Part shown: piece after piece, positions 23,326 to 64,000 of the stretch
How the letters are laid out: each line of letters starts with the position of its first letter
Numbering within the stretch: the first letter of the stretch is position 1
Assembly: GCF_024223415.1 (NCBI RefSeq)
Contig: NZ_CP100500.1
Reading direction: 5' to 3' (one strand)
DNA from: Escherichia coli
Lineage (GTDB): Bacteria > Pseudomonadota > Gammaproteobacteria > Enterobacterales > Enterobacteriaceae
DNA length: 64,000 nucleotides
The notes under the pieces: model-generated
The model's input: only the letters and a program-made list of their open reading frames with translations
Databases searched by the model: none
Told to the model about the DNA's origin: nothing
Program-made: the position numbers and the translations under genes

Positions 23326-24276
23326 TCAGCCTGCGATAGCACCAACAACCTGTAATACTTCGTCACGCGCCTGTTCTGGTTTTTCACTGTCAAGCCAGTG
23401 AACCCCTTCCCAACCACGCAGCCAGGTTATCTGCCGCTTCGCCAACTGTCTCGTGGCGCAAACACCTCGATAAACCATTTCATCGTATGAGATTTCGCCT
23501 TCAAGGTAAGACCACATCTGGCGATAACCCACGCAACGAATGGAAGGCAAGTCCGTATGCAAATCTCCTCGGGCAAAAAGCGCCCGGACTTCTGCTTCAA
23601 AACCTGAAGCCAACATCTGATGAAAACGCTGCTCAATTCGTTGATGGAGCAGTTCACGGCTCGCCGGGGCGATGGCGAACTGATGCACCTGATACGGTAG
23701 AGCGTCTCCTGACGTTTGCGTCAGTTCCGTTAAAGTTTTACCCGAAATGAAAAAAACTTCCAGTGCCCGGGAAAGCCTTTGTGGATCATTTGGATGAATC
23801 CTTGCTGCCGCAACCGGATCGATCTCCTGAAGTTGACGATGCAATGACTCCCAACCTTGCTCTGCCGCCTGTTGCTCAATTCTGGCCCGTACTTCCGGGT
23901 CTGCCGACGGTAGCGGCGACAACCCTTCCAGCAATGCCTTGAAATACAACATCGTACCGCCCACTAACAGTGGGATCCGCCCCGCCGCGGTGATATCGGC
24001 CATTTCCGCCAGCGCATCGCGGCGAAAATCAGCAGCCGAGTAAGCCTGCGACGGATCGCGAATATCCAGCAATCGGTGCGGCGCGGCGAGTAACTCTTCA
24101 GCGTTCGGCTTCGCCGTCCCGATATCCATCCCTTTGTAAATAAGGGCAGAATCAACGCTTATCAACTCTACTGGTAAAATTTTACGCAGTTCAATGGCTA
24201 ACGCCGTTTTACCGGAGGCCGTCGGCCCCATCAAAAAAATCGCCTTAGGCAGGCTCGCCTTACTGATATCACTCAT
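23326..24276 (-). CDS. miaA: tRNA dimethylallyltransferase MiaA
   Basis: ORF 316 aa [30 protein letters not shown] (P-loop). Confidence 0.93.
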
Positions 24277-26116
24277 CTTTCAGGGCTTTTATCGCCGGAT
24301 GTAAATCAACAGATTGTAACAGACCACCCGGCGGCGTTTTCACAAGTTGCGGACATAACCGTTCCACGTCCGCCAGCAGGGTTATGGCCTGTGCCATTGA
24401 CCACTGCGCATGTTCGCTCATCAGATTTCGTGCAATCCACTGCGCAATATTGCCAGGTTCGAATACGGACTGCTTCGCCAGGTAGCCTATCAGTTCAGGA
24501 ATCAAGATTTGTAAATTTTGTTGGCGTAAGGGTAAAGGCACGGCCCTGATGGTCACATGCTGTGCATCTGACTGGAAATCAATACCCAATTCCGCCAGGG
24601 CAGACTGCGCTTTTTCTAATGCCGATTTTTCTTCGCCAGAAACTTTTAGCCGCAACGGAATAAGCAGCGGCTGGGCGCAAACGGGCGCTTCACCCGGCGT
24701 CAGTTGCGCCTGACGCAGCCAACGTTCTGCCACTGGCAAGGCTAAAAGTGAAATGTTGCCGTCGCGCTCCAGCAACGCACAGTCGGAATGGACGATAGTC
24801 AGTACCCGACCAAAACTCTGACTGTTCGCCGCAAGTGCAGGTTCCTGCGGTTCTGGCGCTTTTGGTTTTTGCATCGGCGCGGGCGTTTGCAAAAGCTGGC
24901 GATACACTTCACCTTGCTGTTTCTGGTAACCTGGCTGCGCATTCGGCCAGGGGGCAGCCGGACGACTGCCTGAGGCGGGCGCAGGAGTGTAACGCGGAGC
25001 TACCGGCTCACGAGCTGCCGGTTCAGCAAAATGATTGCGCCCCGCCGCCACGCGGTTTTCCGGAATAGCACGCGGTGCAGGTTGGGGTTCATCGTCCAGC
25101 GGTAGCGGCGTTTCCAGCTGCTGTTGTAGCACGCTCAGCACGCCCTGATAGATAAAGTCATGCACCAGACGCGACTGATGAAAACGCACTTCGTGTTTGG
25201 CGGGGTGCACGTTAACGTCCACCTGATGCGGGTCGATCTCCAGATACAACACAAATGCCGGTTGCTGATCGGCCCCCAGTTTGTCTTCGCAGGCCTGGCG
25301 GATCGCGTGATTGATCAGGCGATCGCGCATCATGCGACCGTTCACGTAGCAATACTGAATTTCTGCCAGGGCGGGCGTGGTGTGATTCGGATCGGCCACC
25401 CAGCCGCGCAGGGTGAGATCGCCGTGTTGCCATTCAATCGCCAGCGCTTGTTCGAGAAAAGCGGTGCCGCAAATCGCGCCTAAGCGCCGTTCTTTTTGCC
25501 CGCCTTCCGGCACTGCACGGTACTGACGCACAATTTTACCGTTATGCGACAGGTTGATCGTGACGTCGAAACGCGCCAGCGCAATGCGGCGGATGATTTC
25601 ATCGATATGGTTAAATTCAGTTTTCTCGGTGCGCAGGAATTTGCGCCGCGCCGGGGTGTTGTAGAACAGATCCAGCACCTCCAGCGTCGTTCCCACCGGA
25701 TGCGCCGCCGGTTTAACCGTCACGTCCATATCGCGCCCTTCGGCATAGGCCTGCCAGGCTTCCTGCTGTTCTGCGGTGCGTGAAGTGAGCGTCAGGCGGG
25801 AAACCGAACTGATACTCGCCAGCGCCTCACCGCGAAAGCCCAGGCTGATAATGGCTTCGAGATCGTCCAGAGAGGCGATTTTACTGGTGGCATGACGAGC
25901 CAGCGCCAGCGCCAGCTCATCTTTTTTGATACCGCAGCCGTTATCACGAATGCGGATAAGTTTCGCCCCACCGCGTTCGATATCAATATCGATACGCGTC
26001 GCACCTGCATCGAGGCTGTTTTCCACCAGTTCTTTGACTACCGACGCAGGTCGCTCGACCACCTCACCTGCGGCAATCTGGTTCGCCAGTTGTGGCGGTA
26101 AGACCTGAATTGGCAT
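24269..26116 (-). CDS. mutL: DNA mismatch repair protein MutL
   Basis: ORF 24269..26119(-) trimmed to [40 protein letters not shown] (GHKL ATPase), 615 aa; overlaps miaA start by 8 nt. Confidence 0.93.
25899..25916 (-). repeat. three tandem GCTGGC hexamers inside mutL (coding LALALA)
   Basis: plus strand gccagc gccagc gccagc; encodes ELALALARH in the MutL ATPase domain. Confidence 0.8.
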
Positions 26117-26125
26117 CAATCGTCC

Positions 26126-27463
26126 TTAGTTTGGCAGCGTGCGATCTGGCGTCGTCACCGTACTGGCAGTTTGTGCCGTTGCACCCTGCGGCGCAGATTG
26201 CATCGGATGCGCAAGGAAATAATTGCGCAGGCCTTTGTAAATGGCTTCTGCCAGCTGTTGTTGGTAATCGTCGCTCGCCAGCAAACGTTCTTCGCTGTTG
26301 TTGCTGATAAAACCGGTTTCGACCAGTACTGATGGGATATCCGGCGAACGCAGAACGCCAAGGCTGGCGTGTTCTGGTCGACGTTTATGAATTTCGCCAA
26401 TGCGTTGCAACTGACTGATCATACTGGTCGCTACATCATACCCTACCCGCTGGGAATGACCGAACTGTAAATCCAGCACCGCCTGGCTTAAATAGGGGTC
26501 AGACTGACTGTTCGCCAGTACATCGCCCGCTCCGCCCAGTAGCTCTGACTGTTTCTCGTGCTGCTCCAGCCAGCTGGCCATTTCGCTGTTGGCGCGACGG
26601 TTAGAGAGCACCCATACGGAAGCGCCAGTCGCACTGCGGTTCGGTGCGGCATCAGCGTGAATCGACACGAGGAAATTGGCGTTTTGCTTACGTGCCACAT
26701 CGCTGCGCCCCATCACCGAGATAAAGTAATCCCCGTCACGGGTTAAAACGCCTTTAAACATCGGATCGTCATTGAGCAAAGTACGCAATTTACGCGCGAT
26801 GGCGATGGTGACATTTTTCTCCCGCGTACCACCGGGGCCGATAGCGCCAGGGTCCTGACCGCCGTGTCCGGCATCAATAGCGATGATAATTTTATCGCCA
26901 GTGTTAGCCGTCGCGCGCGCTGCCGGACGCGTTACCGTATTACTGCTGATAACACCCGTAGTGCGGTTACTTTCCGTTTTAAACGGATTGCGCGCCGGTT
27001 CGCTGACGCGCGGTGCGACAACCGTAGGCGTTTCAACGCGTTTCGCAACCACAGGCGGCGGAGGAGGCGGTGGCGGCGCATCGGCGTTAATCGTAAAGAC
27101 AACAGTGTAATTGCTGCCATTCTGCCGCTTCACCGCTTCGGTTTTACCATTTTCGGTAAGATCAACCACCAGCCGTAGCGTTTGTGCATCTTTAGGCGTT
27201 CCGGAGCGAATCGCCTTCACCAGATTATTACCGCTGAACAACAACGGCAGTCCCTGAATCACGCCCGTTTGTTTGATATCGAGCGCCACGGTGCGTTTGC
27301 TTTGATGGCTAAACGCATAATCAGGATCGCCAATAAAACTCAACGTTATCCGCGCCTGTTGGTTGCCGTTAGAAACCTGAATATCAGAGAGCGTCGCGGC
27401 ACCCACCTGCGCGCACAGCAGCAGCAACGTCGCTACCAACCAATTTCTGATGCGATACATCAT
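26126..27463 (-). CDS. amiB: N-acetylmuramoyl-L-alanine amidase AmiB
   Basis: ORF 26126..27478(-) trimmed to [23 protein letters not shown] (signal peptide), 445 aa; poly-Pro linker and Amidase_3 domain. Confidence 0.92.
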
Positions 27464-30869: not shown

Positions 30870-30945
<76 letters not shown>

Positions 30946-30980
30946 TTGGGTGGTCTGTGCCTTACAGCACTTTCAAATTT

Positions 30981-31056
<76 letters not shown>

Positions 31057-31092
31057 TTGGGTGGTCTGTGCTTTGCAGCACTTTTCAAATTT

Positions 31093-31168
<76 letters not shown>

Positions 31169-45250: not shown

Positions 45251-45784
45251 ATGCGCCTGCTCCCTCTCGTTGCCGCAGCGACAGCTGCATTTCTGGTCGT
45301 TGCCTGCAGTTCTCCTACGCCGCCGCGTGGCGTGACCGTAGTGAATAATTTCGACGCTAAACGCTATCTCGGTACCTGGTATGAGATTGCCCGTTTTGAT
45401 CACCGCTTTGAACGTGGACTGGAAAAAGTCACCGCAACATACAGCCTGAGGGATGATGGCGGCCTGAATGTCATTAATAAAGGCTATAACCCTGACAGAG
45501 AAATGTGGCAGCAGAGTGAAGGGAAAGCGTACTTTACCGGCGCACCAACTCGCGCTGCGCTGAAAGTGTCATTCTTTGGTCCTTTCTATGGCGGTTATAA
45601 CGTTATTGCACTCGATCGGGAATACCGCCATGCGCTGGTTTGCGGCCCGGACCGCGACTACCTGTGGATACTCTCCCGCACGCCAACCATTTCTGACGAA
45701 GTGAAACAGGAGATGCTGGCAGTCGCGACCCGGGAAGGGTTTGATGTCAGTAAGTTTATTTGGGTACAGCAGCCCGGTAGTTAG
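45251..45784 (+). CDS. blc: outer-membrane lipocalin Blc
   Basis: ORF 177 aa [25 protein letters not shown] (lipobox) then lipocalin GTWYEIA motif. Confidence 0.92.
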
Positions 45785-46098
45785 TGAGTGCTGAGTTTCA
45801 GACCAATAATCCCCAATACGATTAACGCCAGACTCGCCAGACGCATCGGGTTAGCGGACTCACCGAGCAGCACAATGCCGGTGATGGCCGCGCCGACTGC
45901 GCCAATACCCGTCCACACGGCATAAGCCGTCCCTACTGGTAACGATTTCATCGCCCAGGCAAGTAGCGCCATACTGACAATCATCGCCGTCACGGTAATA
46001 ACACTCGGCGTCAAACGACTAAAGCCGTGGGTATATTTCAGGCCAACGGCCCATACCACTTCCAGCAGACCAGCAATAACTAAGATAATCCAGGACAT
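45781..46098 (-). CDS. gdx: SMR-family guanidinium exporter Gdx (SugE)
   Basis: ORF 45781..46161(-) trimmed to [26 protein letters not shown], 105 aa, conserved membrane-embedded Glu. Confidence 0.9.
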
Positions 46099-46114: not shown

Positions 46115-46162
46115 TTGGGGCCGTCCCCGGTGAAAAGAGGCGTTTGCAGGTCGTCCTGCAAA
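46115..46162 (-). ncRNA. guanidine-II (mini-ykkC) riboswitch in the gdx 5' leader
   Basis: transcribed strand reads UUGCAGG-ACGA-CCUGCAA ... GGGG-ACGG-CCCC: two short GC-rich hairpins with ACGR tetraloops, directly upstream of the gdx RBS. Confidence 0.6.
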
Positions 46163-50251: not shown

Positions 50252-51910
<1,659 letters not shown>

Positions 51911-60296: not shown

Positions 60297-60372
60297 GCCC
60301 GGATAGCTCAGTCGGTAGAGCAGGGGATTGAAAATCCCCGTGTCCTTGGTTCGATTCCGAGTCCGGGCACCA
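60297..60372 (+). tRNA. pheU: tRNA-Phe (anticodon GAA)
   Basis: GCCCGGATAGCTCAGTCGGTAGAGCAGGGGATTGAAAATCCCCGTGTCCTTGGTTCGATTCCGAGTCCGGGCACCA; cloverleaf, GAA anticodon, encoded CCA. Confidence 0.95.
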
Positions 60373-60382
60373 AATTCATATA

Positions 60383-60409
60383 AACGGACCTCCACGGAGG
60401 TCCGTTTTT
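60383..60409 (+). terminator. intrinsic terminator of pheU
   Basis: cggacctcc-acgg-aggtccg hairpin followed by TTTTT, 10 nt after the tRNA CCA end. Confidence 0.6.
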
Positions 60410-60569
60410 CGTTTCAGGACGCCACGATTTAAGCGTCCTGCCGCCAAATCAATTCTACCGAACTCAACCAGACTCCCCCCACATCAACCCCATTGTGTGG
60501 GTATAATTGCGGGTATACCCCAGTTCGACAGAATTTGTACCCTCTTTAACGCATTCAGAAGGCTGAACT

Positions 60570-61832
60570 ATGGCACTGACTGACGCAAAAATCCGGGCTG
60601 CAAAGCACACTGACAAGGCTTATAAACTCACTGACGGGGCTGGCATGTTCCTGCTGGTACATCCTAATGGTTCCCGTTACTGGCGTCTCCGTTATCGCAT
60701 TCTGGGTAAGGAGAAAACTCTGGCACTTGGTGTATACCCGGAGGTTTCTCTCTCCGAAGCTCGTACAAAACGGGATGAGGCCCGAAAACTGATTTCGGAG
60801 GGGATTGACCCTTGCGAACAGAAAAGAGCTAAAAAAGTAGTCCCTGATTTACAACTCTCTTTTGAACATATTGCACGACGCTGGCATGCCAGTAATAAAC
60901 AATGGGCACAATCACACAGCGATAAGGTACTCAAAAGCCTCGAAACACACGTTTTCCCCTTTATCGGCAACCGGAACATCACAACACTCAATACCCCGGA
61001 CCTGCTTATCCCTGTTCGTGCTGCAGAAGCTAAACAAATTTATGAAATCGCCAGTCGTCTGCAGCAAAGAATATCTGCTGTAATGCGTTATGCCGTACAG
61101 TCTGGCATCATCAGATATAATCCTGCTCTGGATATGGCTGGCGCATTGACTACGGTAAAACGCCAGCATCGCCCCGCTCTTGATCTTTCTCGCCTGCCTG
61201 AACTTTTGTCGCGTATTGGCAGTTACAAGGGGCAACCTGTCACCCAGCTTGCCGTTATGCTGAATTTACTGGTTTTTATTCGTTCCAGTGAACTCAGATA
61301 CGCCCGCTGGTCTGAAATTGATATTGACAATGCCATGTGGACTATTCCAGCCGAACGCGAACCCCTGCCAGGCGTAAAATTCTCACACCGGGGCTCCAAG
61401 ATGCGAACACCACATCTTGTGCCACTCAGCAAACAGGCTGTAGCCATACTGACAGAACTACAGACATGGGCTGGTGAAAATGGTCTGATCTTTACGGGAG
61501 CACATGACCCGCGTAAACCAATCAGTGAAAATACTGTAAATAAAGCCCTGAGGGTGATGGGGTATGACACAACCCAGGATGTCTGTGGCCATGGATTCCG
61601 GGCGATGGCGTGCAGTGCATTGATTGAATCAGGTTTGTGGTCCCGCGATGCTGTGGAACGTCAGATGAGCCATCAGGAGCGTAATGGTGTACGTGCTGCG
61701 TATATCCATAAAGCAGAACATCTGGAAGAACGTCGACTGATGCTACAGTGGTGGGCAGATTTTCTGGATGCGAACAGAGATAAGGGTATCAGCCCGTTTG
61801 AATATGCAAAGATTAACAATCCATTAAAATAG
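60570..61832 (+). CDS. P4-type tyrosine recombinase (genomic-island integrase)
   Basis: ORF 420 aa MALTDAKIRAAKHTDKAYKLTDGAGMFLLVHPNGSRYWRLRYR..., Arm-binding N-terminus typical of P4-like Int; catalytic HGFR and downstream Tyr (RAAYIH) present; ~200 bp from tRNA-Phe 3' end. Confidence 0.9.
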   Translation: MALTDAKIRAAKHTDKAYKLTDGAGMFLLVHPNGSRYWRLRYRILGKEKTLALGVYPEVSLSEARTKRDEARKLISEGIDPCEQKRAKKVVPDLQLSFEHIARRWHASNKQWAQSHSDKVLKSLETHVFPFIGNRNITTLNTPDLLIPVRAAEAKQIYEIASRLQQRISAVMRYAVQSGIIRYNPALDMAGALTTVKRQHRPALDLSRLPELLSRIGSYKGQPVTQLAVMLNLLVFIRSSELRYARWSEIDIDNAMWTIPAEREPLPGVKFSHRGSKMRTPHLVPLSKQAVAILTELQTWAGENGLIFTGAHDPRKPISENTVNKALRVMGYDTTQDVCGHGFRAMACSALIESGLWSRDAVERQMSHQERNGVRAAYIHKAEHLEERRLMLQWWADFLDANRDKGISPFEYAKINNPLK

Positions 61833-61835
61833 TAA

Positions 61836-61880
61836 GCAGTCCGGGCTGATTGCCCGGACTGCTTTAACTGATTATTTTTC
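61836..61880 (+). terminator. putative intrinsic terminator after integrase gene
   Basis: gcagtccgggc-tgat-tgcccggactgc hairpin followed by a T-rich tract. Confidence 0.45.
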
Positions 61881-62097
61881 TTTGTAAATGATGACGAAGA
61901 TTGATGTTCTGGCAAGTTACTCCGGCTTCCATTAAAGTCCCTTCGTCATGTTCTTCAGGCTATTTATGACTGTGATTAGCACCAGGAATATCTGGTTTCC
62001 ATGAGAGCAGGTAATAACCCCCGGTGTTTTCGGCTGTTCTGGTATCCTTGTCCAACACAGGCAGTCATTATAAACGGTAAAAAATGTGGATTTGCCC

Positions 62098-63003
62098 CTA
62101 TATTTCCAGACATCTGTTATCACTTAACCCATTACAGGCCCGCTGCCGCAGATATTCCCGTGGCGAGCGATAACCCAACGCACTATGCGGATGCCATTCG
62201 TTATAATGCTCGAACGCCTCTGCAAGGTTCTTTGCTGCCGTTAACCCGTCTGGTTTGGGCATGACACTGATGTAGTCACGCTTTATCGTTTTCACGAAGC
62301 TCTCTGCTATGCCGTTACTCTCCGGACTCCGCACCGCCGTGTTCTTCGGTTCAAGCCCCAACATCCGGGCAAACTGCCGTGTTTCATTAGCCCGGTAGCA
62401 TGAACCATTATCCGTCAGCCACTCTACTGGAGACGCCGGAAGCTCGTTGCCGAAGCGGCGTTCCACCGCTCCTGGCATGACGTCCTGTACTGTTTCACTG
62501 TTGAAGCCGCCCGTAGTGACCGCCCAGTGCAGTGCCTCACGGTCACAGCAGTCCAGCGCGAACGTGACTCGCAGTTTTTCTCCGTTATCACAGCGGAACT
62601 CGAACCCGTCAGAGCACCATCGCTGATTACTTTCTTTCACAGCCACTCTGCCGGTATGTGCCCGTTTCGATGGCGGTACAGCGGTTTTTCGCTCAAGCAA
62701 CAGCGCATTCTGGCGCATGATCCGGTAAATACGTTTGGCATTGATCGCAGGCATACCATCAAGTTCTGTTTGTCTGCGAAGCAGCGCCCATACCCGACAA
62801 TAACCATATGTGGGTAGCTCTCCGATAACATGGTGTATACGGCGAAGCACATCCGTATCATCCGTGTGACGGCTGCGGCGGCCGTCCTTCCAGTCATCGG
62901 CTCGTCTGAGAATGACGTGCAACTGCGCACGCGACACCCGGAGACAACGGCTGACGAAGCTTACTCCCCATCCCCGGGCAATAAGGGCGCGTGCGCTATC
63001 CAC
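62098..63003 (-). CDS. insD: IS2 transposase OrfB (DDE integrase domain)
   Basis: ORF 301 aa [34 protein letters not shown]..., recognised as IS2 InsD. Confidence 0.92.
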
Positions 63004-63326
63004 TTTTTTGCTCGCCCATATTCAACGGCTTCTTTAAGGAGTTCATTTTCCATCGTTTTTTTGCCGAGCAGACGCTGGAGTTCTTTAATCTGCTTCATGG
63101 CGGCAGCAAGTTCAGAGGCAGGAACGACCTGTTCTCCGGCAGCCACAGCAGTAAGACTTCCCTCCTGGTATTGCTTACGCCAGAGAAATAGCTGGCTGGC
63201 TGCCACACCATGTTGCCGGGCAACAAGGGAGACCGTCATTCCCGGTTCAAAGCTCTGCTGAACGATAGCGATCTTTTCCTGTGTAGTACGCCGTCTGCGT
63301 TTCTCCGGCCCTAAGACATCAATCAT
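62961..63326 (-). CDS. insC: IS2 transposase OrfA (HTH)
   Basis: ORF 62961..63371(-) trimmed to [41 protein letters not shown], 121 aa; overlaps insD in the -1 frame. Confidence 0.9.
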
Positions 63327-63543
63327 CTGTTCTCCAATGACTAGTCTAAAAACTAGTATTAAGACTATCACTTATTTAAGTGATATTGGTTGTCTGGAGA
63401 TTCAGGGGGCCAGTCTAAAATGTATTCACTGTTATGAAATCAATAGTTCTGACGTACTGTTGAATGTGCTTGCGTTCTGAACCTTGTACAACCAGTACAT
63501 TTGATACCGAATTATAAACAAAACATTGCATCCAACTTTTTCA

Positions 63544-63566
63544 ATATGGACAATAGTTGTCCATAT
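63544..63566. promoter_or_regulatory. perfect 10-3-10 palindrome (ATATGGACAA-TAG-TTGTCCATAT), candidate operator upstream of the cargo ORF
   Basis: read directly from sequence ~55 bp upstream of the ATG at 63620, inside an AT-rich leader. Confidence 0.4.
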
Positions 63567-63619
63567 GGTGGTTTTATATTCGATAAATCAATGGATTTCA
63601 TTGAGTCATAGGACTGGTA

Positions 63620-64000
63620 ATGGATGAAAATGCTTTAGGGTTTGCCTCATACTGGCGCAACTCGCTTGCGGATGCTGAGTCAGGAAAGGGCAGTTTTGAA
63701 CGGAAAGACGCCAAAAATTTCACTCATTGGCATGGGATAGCGGCGGGACGTCTTGACGAAGCGATTGTCAGTAAATTTTTTAAGGGAGAAAAAGACGATG
63801 TCGAAACGGTCGATGTCATCTTGCGCCCAAAAGTTTATTTCCGGTTACTGCAGCATGGTAAGGACCGTTCTGCAGGTGCGCCTGATATTGTTACCCCGAT
63901 AGTGACGCCAGCCTTGCTAAGCCGTGAGGGTTTTTTATATCCGACGCCAGCGACCTCCATTCCCAGAGACCTGCTTGAACCTTTGCCAAAAGGAGCATTT
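63620..64000 (+). CDS. island cargo gene of unknown function (first 127 codons only; continues beyond window)
   Basis: open frame from ATG 63620 to the window end with no stop: MDENALGFASYWRNSLADAESGKGSFERKDAKNFTHWHGIAAGRLDEAIVSKFFKGEKDDVETVDVILRPKVYFRLLQHG...; not in ORF track because it is unterminated; I do not recognise the family. Confidence 0.5.
   Translation, partial: MDENALGFASYWRNSLADAESGKGSFERKDAKNFTHWHGIAAGRLDEAIVSKFFKGEKDDVETVDVILRPKVYFRLLQHGKDRSAGAPDIVTPIVTPALLSREGFLYPTPATSIPRDLLEPLPKGAF

Follow-up and report, generated by a model that had tools for sequence, protein, structure and literature searches.

The copy of mutL in the window (the whole stretch of 64,000 nt of E. coli DNA analysed here) appears, with a probability of about 95% judged from its sequence, to be an ordinary wild-type allele whose slippage-prone hexamer array is in the three-copy, functional state. 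The repeat, and the mutator route that opens when it gains or loses one unit, are already published knowledge, and there is nothing unusual in the window; the additions made here to the known picture are a genome census, a flag for unannotated probable mutators and a wider taxonomic spread, and nothing else. The array lies at 25899-25916, where the plus strand reads GCCAGCGCCAGCGCCAGC and the minus strand, which carries the gene, reads GCTGGCGCTGGCGCTGGC, i.e. (GCTGGC)x3. An earlier note on this DNA had placed it there and was exact to the base; Tandem Repeats Finder returned the same coordinates, with a period of 6, 3.0 copies and 100% matches. Within the gene the array occupies mutL nt 201-218, the position listed in Table 2 of Chen 2010 (PMC2955026). 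Its context on the gene strand is AAA AAA GAT GAG CTG GCG CTG GCG CTG GCT CGT CAT, translated as K64 K65 D66 E67 L68 A69 L70 A71 L72 A73 R74 H75. The array is therefore in frame, running from the last base of GAG through CTG GCG CTG GCG CTG to the first two bases of GCT and encoding LALALA at residues 68-73, and it cannot be extended, being preceded on the gene strand by the A of GAG and followed by the T of GCT.

In the 64-kb window this is the sole perfect array with at least three copies and a period above 4, the remaining three perfect arrays of at least three copies being 12-nt tetramer runs. Random coincidence was considered as its origin and rejected, only 0.005 period-6 arrays of this kind being expected per 64 kb in first-order Markov simulations of the window. 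The array is real, though born of a repeated peptide written with the commonest codons. Also intact in the window is an A6 run that precedes the hexamer array by 5 nt (25922-25927, minus strand; mutL nt 190-195, codons K64-K65); AAAAAA at nt 190-195 is listed in Table 2 of Chen 2010 (PMC2955026) and named there as a potential slippage (frameshift) site.

The mutL coding sequence spans 24269-26116 on the minus strand (615 aa plus a stop codon, with its ATG at 26116), and the reading frame is intact and of full length; a TTG one codon upstream of this ATG figures in the list of open reading frames and is not the annotated start. The RefSeq annotation of S51, a strain locally identical to the window, has mutL at the same coordinates. 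The identity of the gene, as given in the earlier note, was confirmed by the NCBIfam equivalog NF000948 (1017.3 bits; cutoff 701), and the protein also matched TIGR00585 (603.8 bits; cutoff 180). Its Pfam architecture consists of HATPase_c_3 at residues 24-120, DNA_mis_repair at 214-330 (the transducer) and MutL_C at 440-564 (dimerisation). When aligned with PDB 7p8v, the solved full-length E. coli K-12 protein, residues 1-615 were matched with five substitutions (N131D, S350A, L418P, S459A and A495G), residues 1-130 being identical. Among 33 Enterobacteriaceae species, D131 is the consensus residue, and the GHKL residues E29, N33, D58, G60, G62, G93, G96 and K307, all of them present in the window protein, are invariant.

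The repeat is held by the N-terminal GHKL ATPase fragment (residues 1-331, equivalent to LN40; 25124-26116, minus strand), and the solved chains 1b63, 1nhh and 1bkn match MutL over residues 1-331/349. LALALA lies inside HATPase_c_3, directly behind GHKL motif II (D58-N-G-C-G62) and directly ahead of R74-H-A-T-S-K79, with which the ATP lid starts. That the array encodes LALALA in the ATPase domain, as had been claimed, is thus borne out by the translation, by the limits of HATPase_c_3 and by the fragments 1b63 and 1bkn. Published placement of LALALA puts it next to the ATP lid of MutL (PMC2955026 and PMC9376063). An AlphaFold2 model of the 331 N-terminal residues, built from the 33-species alignment, had a mean pLDDT of 51.6, with the ATPase region below 50, and was unusable for placing residues 68-73.

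A one-unit change in this array causes, according to published work (Shaver & Sniegowski 2003; Chen 2010; Desroches 2018; Wei 2022), the in-frame loss or gain of one Leu-Ala pair and yields a mutator defective in mismatch repair. The event behind it would be slipped-strand mispairing during replication, in which the new strand and its template, given identical units, could pair one unit out of register. Such a slip would either delete 6 bp (LALA) or duplicate 6 bp (LALALALA), in each case in frame and with a full-length protein as the product. In these products, going by published biochemistry, ATP binding by MutL would be impaired and mismatch repair abolished, with a mutator phenotype as the outcome; a slip in the reverse direction would, as described in the literature, restore the wild type. 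E. coli MutS recognises 6-nt loops poorly, and slippage at the mutL array would therefore probably proceed at much the same rate whatever the repair status of the cell.

The published cases come from both Salmonella and E. coli (PMC2955026, PMC5793043, PMC9376063), and they uphold the earlier note where it called the gain or loss of one unit a known route to mutator phenotypes. In Salmonella LT2, mutL has three GCTGGC copies at nt 201-218, and a two-copy allele, 6bp-delta-mutL, is a mutator that interconverts with mutL in culture, synonymous 'locking' of the repeat having been used against this conversion (Chen 2010, PMC2955026). Length changes of the same repeat are reported for mutator lines from Lenski's experiment (Shaver & Sniegowski 2003, as cited by Chen 2010, PMC2955026), and in K-12 evolution lines two independent 6-bp deletions turned LALALA into LALA within about 100 generations (Wei 2022, PMC9376063). 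One Leu-Ala pair more or fewer impairs ATP binding, according to Pillon 2013 as cited by Wei 2022 (PMC9376063). All collection isolates of Escherich's original strain carry L68_A69del, which has been tied to their mutator phenotype, and NCTC86 has a mutT frameshift in addition (Desroches 2018, PMC5793043).

The mutL GCTGGC/CTGGCG repeat known from E. coli B and K-12 and from the Salmonella Typhimurium switch (Shaver & Sniegowski 2003; Gong 2007; Chen 2010; Pillon 2013) is matched by the window array in gene, position (nt 201-218), unit, copy number and the LALALA product, and there is no difference in kind from the mutL/6bp-delta-mutL system. A minor difference concerns its end. In the window the next codon is GCT, which holds the array to exactly 18 nt; where that codon is GCG, as in ST648, E. 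whittamii and numerous species of Citrobacter and Enterobacter, the period runs on to 20 nt and the overlapping CTGGCG register arises that is on record for E. coli B. NCTC86 has the same array, in a K-12-like mutL background, with one unit lost; it has 2 units, 613 aa, a documented mutator phenotype and extra lesions such as the mutT frameshift, whereas the window allele has 3 units and 615 aa.

The natural frequency of length variants was estimated by matching synthetic 2- and 4-copy alleles with 30-nt flanks against 5,426 complete E. coli genomes, 5,419 of which gave a match. The 2-copy allele was found in seven records at 100% identity and the 4-copy allele in one (ST648, from a pleural effusion; 98.8%, without a gap). 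About 5,411 of the 5,419 genomes (about 99.85%) aligned with a single 6-nt gap and are consistent with three copies, a class that may hide 1- or 5-copy alleles; these are inseparable from 3-copy ones, since their BLAST alignments split into two pieces and are re-joined at 100% identity. The earlier note was therefore right to call three copies the wild-type state. Alleles with another copy number amounted to 8 of about 5,419 complete genomes, which gives a rough natural frequency of about 0.15%, and five of the eight belong to one collection strain. One of the 5,426 genomes had no match to the 264-nt mutL N-terminal query, and its mutL may be deleted; six more matched only when long flanks were used, which suggests divergent mutL alleles. 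Two of the mutL matches in the collection are plasmid-borne.

When four of the variant alleles were aligned base by base, their copy numbers were confirmed. The 2-copy reading frame has 613 aa and the 4-copy one 617 aa, and both are intact. An intact frame, which the earlier note had taken as a sign of function, is for this reason not diagnostic, the defect being the in-frame loss or gain of Leu-Ala. Four of the seven 2-copy records are assemblies of NCTC86 (Escherich's strain), and B-2207 has the same MutL and AmiB proteins. The other variants are W137 (2-copy, 613 aa; urine, China; NZ_CP163067.1, locus L003), 377323_2f (2-copy, 613 aa; faeces; NZ_CP039404.1, locus L002) and ST648 (4-copy, 617 aa; NZ_CP008697.1, locus L004), with mutL at 2330-4171/4183 of the respective locus. 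In mutL, W137 lies 3 nt from NCTC86 and 377323_2f lies 35 nt from it, so the natural alleles represent at least two independent deletions, together with one duplication. Judging from their alleles, ST648, W137 and 377323_2f are probably unrecognised hypermutators. RefSeq lists the 613-aa and 617-aa proteins under the plain name 'DNA mismatch repair endonuclease MutL' and attaches no warning, yet such alleles are published as strong mutators; the copy number at nt 201-218 would for that reason serve as a one-line annotation flag for likely hypermutators among clinical and collection genomes.

The window itself is ordinary E. coli chromosome. The genes around mutL stand in the standard E. coli arrangement (nnr-tsaE-amiB-mutL-miaA-hfq-hflXKC), and the surrounding 12 kb are 100% identical in several strains of unrelated source, e.g. 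S51, NCTC10444 and NCTC9112, which makes this an allele in circulation. The three records with the top bit score came from poultry meat, a calf and an unrecorded source, and four further records at 100.0% identity over the 12 kb were of human, pig and chicken origin. Compared with S51, the window shows 13 SNPs over about 60 kb, after which the two diverge, beyond tRNA-Phe at about 60.3 kb.

This setting bears on the two ways in which the reading of the allele as wild type could fail. It is very improbable that mismatch repair is defective despite the three copies, be it through one of the five substitutions relative to K-12 or through a lesion in mutS, mutH, uvrD or dam. The protein does differ from the K-12 crystal sequence at five residues, but ST648 and 377323_2f share the window residues at all five sites, K-12 being the minority type among the alleles compared; D131 is moreover the family consensus, the reading frame is intact and every GHKL motif residue is in place. 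Mutator lesions can coexist, as NCTC86 shows (PMC5793043), and mutL is the only repair gene within the window, yet the 12 kb around it recur unchanged in strains from such varied sources and a distance of 13 SNPs from S51 over about 60 kb is unlike hypermutation. The earlier note had described a functional, non-mutator allele. The first half of that description stands, in that the site known to fail is intact; the state of mutL alone does not make the strain a non-mutator, as the window does not contain mutS, mutH, uvrD, dam or mutT.

The earlier note had also raised the collapse of the array during assembly. The chance that the count of three is an artefact of collapse or expansion, the isolate truly having two or four units, is close to nil. 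Nothing in the sequence speaks for it, and an 18-nt array is far shorter than any sequencing read, which would make collapse implausible. Moreover, about 99.85% of complete genomes have three copies, and independent assemblies agree base for base with the 12 kb that surround mutL.

To place the array in the family, one genome per species was scanned, which gave 80 Enterobacteriaceae loci at 92% protein identity or more and 79 usable species. LALALA is present in 77 of the 79, the other two having a Ser substitution, and neither LALA nor LALALALA was found in any of the 79; the three-unit peptide is thus strongly constrained. In DNA, 46 of the 79 species have a perfect 17-nt core, CTGGCGCTGGCGCTGGC, and 38 have the full GCTGGCx3, while in 33 the repeat is interrupted and the peptide unchanged. 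The genera with the core include Escherichia, Salmonella, Citrobacter, Enterobacter, Klebsiella and Raoultella, and further Kosakonia, Kluyvera, Phytobacter, Cedecea, Pluralibacter and Superficieibacter. This is a wider spread than was stated in 2010, when the exact repeat was described as confined to close relatives of Salmonella, or to Escherichia, Shigella and Salmonella (Chen 2010, PMC2955026). An Enterobacteriaceae-type MutL with 93% identity to that of E. coli was also seen in CACSKA010000007.1 (1501-2490), labelled Chryseobacterium sp. 18061, which is probably a contaminated or mislabelled assembly.

The perfect repeat would most simply be explained, and adequately so, by the conserved (Leu-Ala)x3 peptide together with a favoured GCG-CTG codon pair, as far as a weak comparison of five pairs can tell. 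The other possibility is that the array is an evolved contingency switch, in which second-order selection keeps the units identical in DNA and thereby lets lineages move back and forth between a low and a high mutation rate, an interpretation argued and favoured by Chen 2010 (PMC2955026). The frequency of the repeat speaks for such selection, the 17-nt core (46/79 species) and GCTGGCx3 (38/79) both greatly exceeding the 4% that mean codon frequencies of the whole gene would predict; the same peptide is, however, encoded by interrupted repeats in 33 of the 79 species. Codon choice within the repeat also looked unusual when ranked by column: codons 68-72 took ranks 1, 6 and 8 of 27 Leu columns (CTG) and ranks 2 and 4 of 29 Ala columns (GCG). 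GCG accounts for 0.87-0.91 of the codons at A69 and A71 but for 0.47 at A73, whose third position falls just beyond the core and varies freely. GCG-CTG makes up 0.76 of the Ala-Leu pairs inside the repeat against 0.45 elsewhere in mutL, an enrichment that may reflect some force preserving the repeat. This apparent repeat-specific synonymous conservation disappeared once conserved Ala-Leu pairs from elsewhere served as the control. GCG-CTG reaches 0.72 and 0.78 at the two Ala-Leu pairs of the repeat and 0.74-0.78 at A98-L99, A179-L180 and A224-L225, which are conserved pairs of the same domain outside the repeat (only five comparison pairs); since the fractions are equal, the signal does not appear to be specific to the repeat. 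In other genes of the window GCG is likewise more frequent before Leu (0.52) than before other residues (0.34), a weaker preference than in mutL; amiB had no conserved Ala-Leu pairs to offer for the control set.

A footprint of unit turnover was also sought. Two species had identical non-canonical adjacent units, namely Kluyvera genomosp. 1 (L057; GCA-CTC twice) and the species of locus L076 (CTG-GCA twice). Shuffling the columns gave an expectation of 1.38 (P = 0.42), so concerted evolution of the array is unsupported. The rarity of length variants likewise argues against a switch: some 0.15% of complete genomes have an allele without three copies, and one culture-collection lineage supplies the majority of these records. 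So does the finding of Chen 2010 (PMC2955026), who screened over 10,000 colonies of Salmonella strains that were not mutators and saw not one conversion. An evolved switch is on balance unlikely, and somewhat less credible still is the stronger proposition that unit identity is actively maintained and that the site acts across the family as a selectable mutation-rate switch instead of being an accident of codon usage. The explanation from peptide and codon pair is the one retained here.

The mutL array resembles the simple-sequence contingency loci of Haemophilus, Neisseria and Campylobacter in being a coding tandem repeat in which slipped-strand mispairing alters the number of copies and, reversibly, the phenotype. 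Classical loci of this type have long tracts of 1-7-nt units that switch at high frequency and act through frameshifts or promoter spacing, whereas the mutL array has only three 6-nt units and changes in frame. Nor is high-frequency switching apparent at mutL, with variants in 8 of about 5,419 genomes, genome records being an indirect proxy for rate. The coding microsatellites of the eukaryotic mismatch-repair genes MSH6 and MSH3 are similar in that a repair gene is itself the target of slippage. Their mononucleotide runs suffer frameshifts and are hit secondarily, after the cell has lost repair, while the lesion in the mutL array is primary, in frame and reversible.

Some further features of the window were recorded. 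In amiB, an imperfect 9-nt repeat at 27053-27078 (minus strand; AGGCGGCGG x2.9) codes for the PPPPPPPP linker of AmiB at about residues 130-137. In 377323_2f, one of the strains with 2-copy mutL, AmiB has PPSPPPM and 443 aa, which is two residues shorter, so the proline tract of amiB is polymorphic in length too. Three near-identical tandem tRNA-Gly genes, a glyVXY-type array with a 111-nt unit x2.7, lie between queG and orn (30870-31168, minus strand). A match to the Guanidine-II (mini-ykkC) riboswitch at 46116-46162 (minus strand; 50.4 bits, gathering score 32) lies directly upstream of the SMR transporter gene sugE (45781-46098, minus strand), a known arrangement. The 3' end of groL (annotated at 50252-51898, minus strand) contains a 9-nt repeat, CATGCCGCC x4, at 50258-50293, which would encode the C-terminal Gly-Gly-Met repeats of GroEL. 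Towards the end of the window, tRNA-Phe (60297-60369, plus strand) is followed by a gene for a 420-aa tyrosine integrase at 60570-61832 (Arm-DNA-bind_3, Phage_int_M and Phage_integrase) and, beyond it, by an IS3-family orfA/orfB pair at 62098-63371 (minus strand). The match with S51 ends right after this tRNA-Phe, which points to a strain-specific island inserted there (60297-64000).
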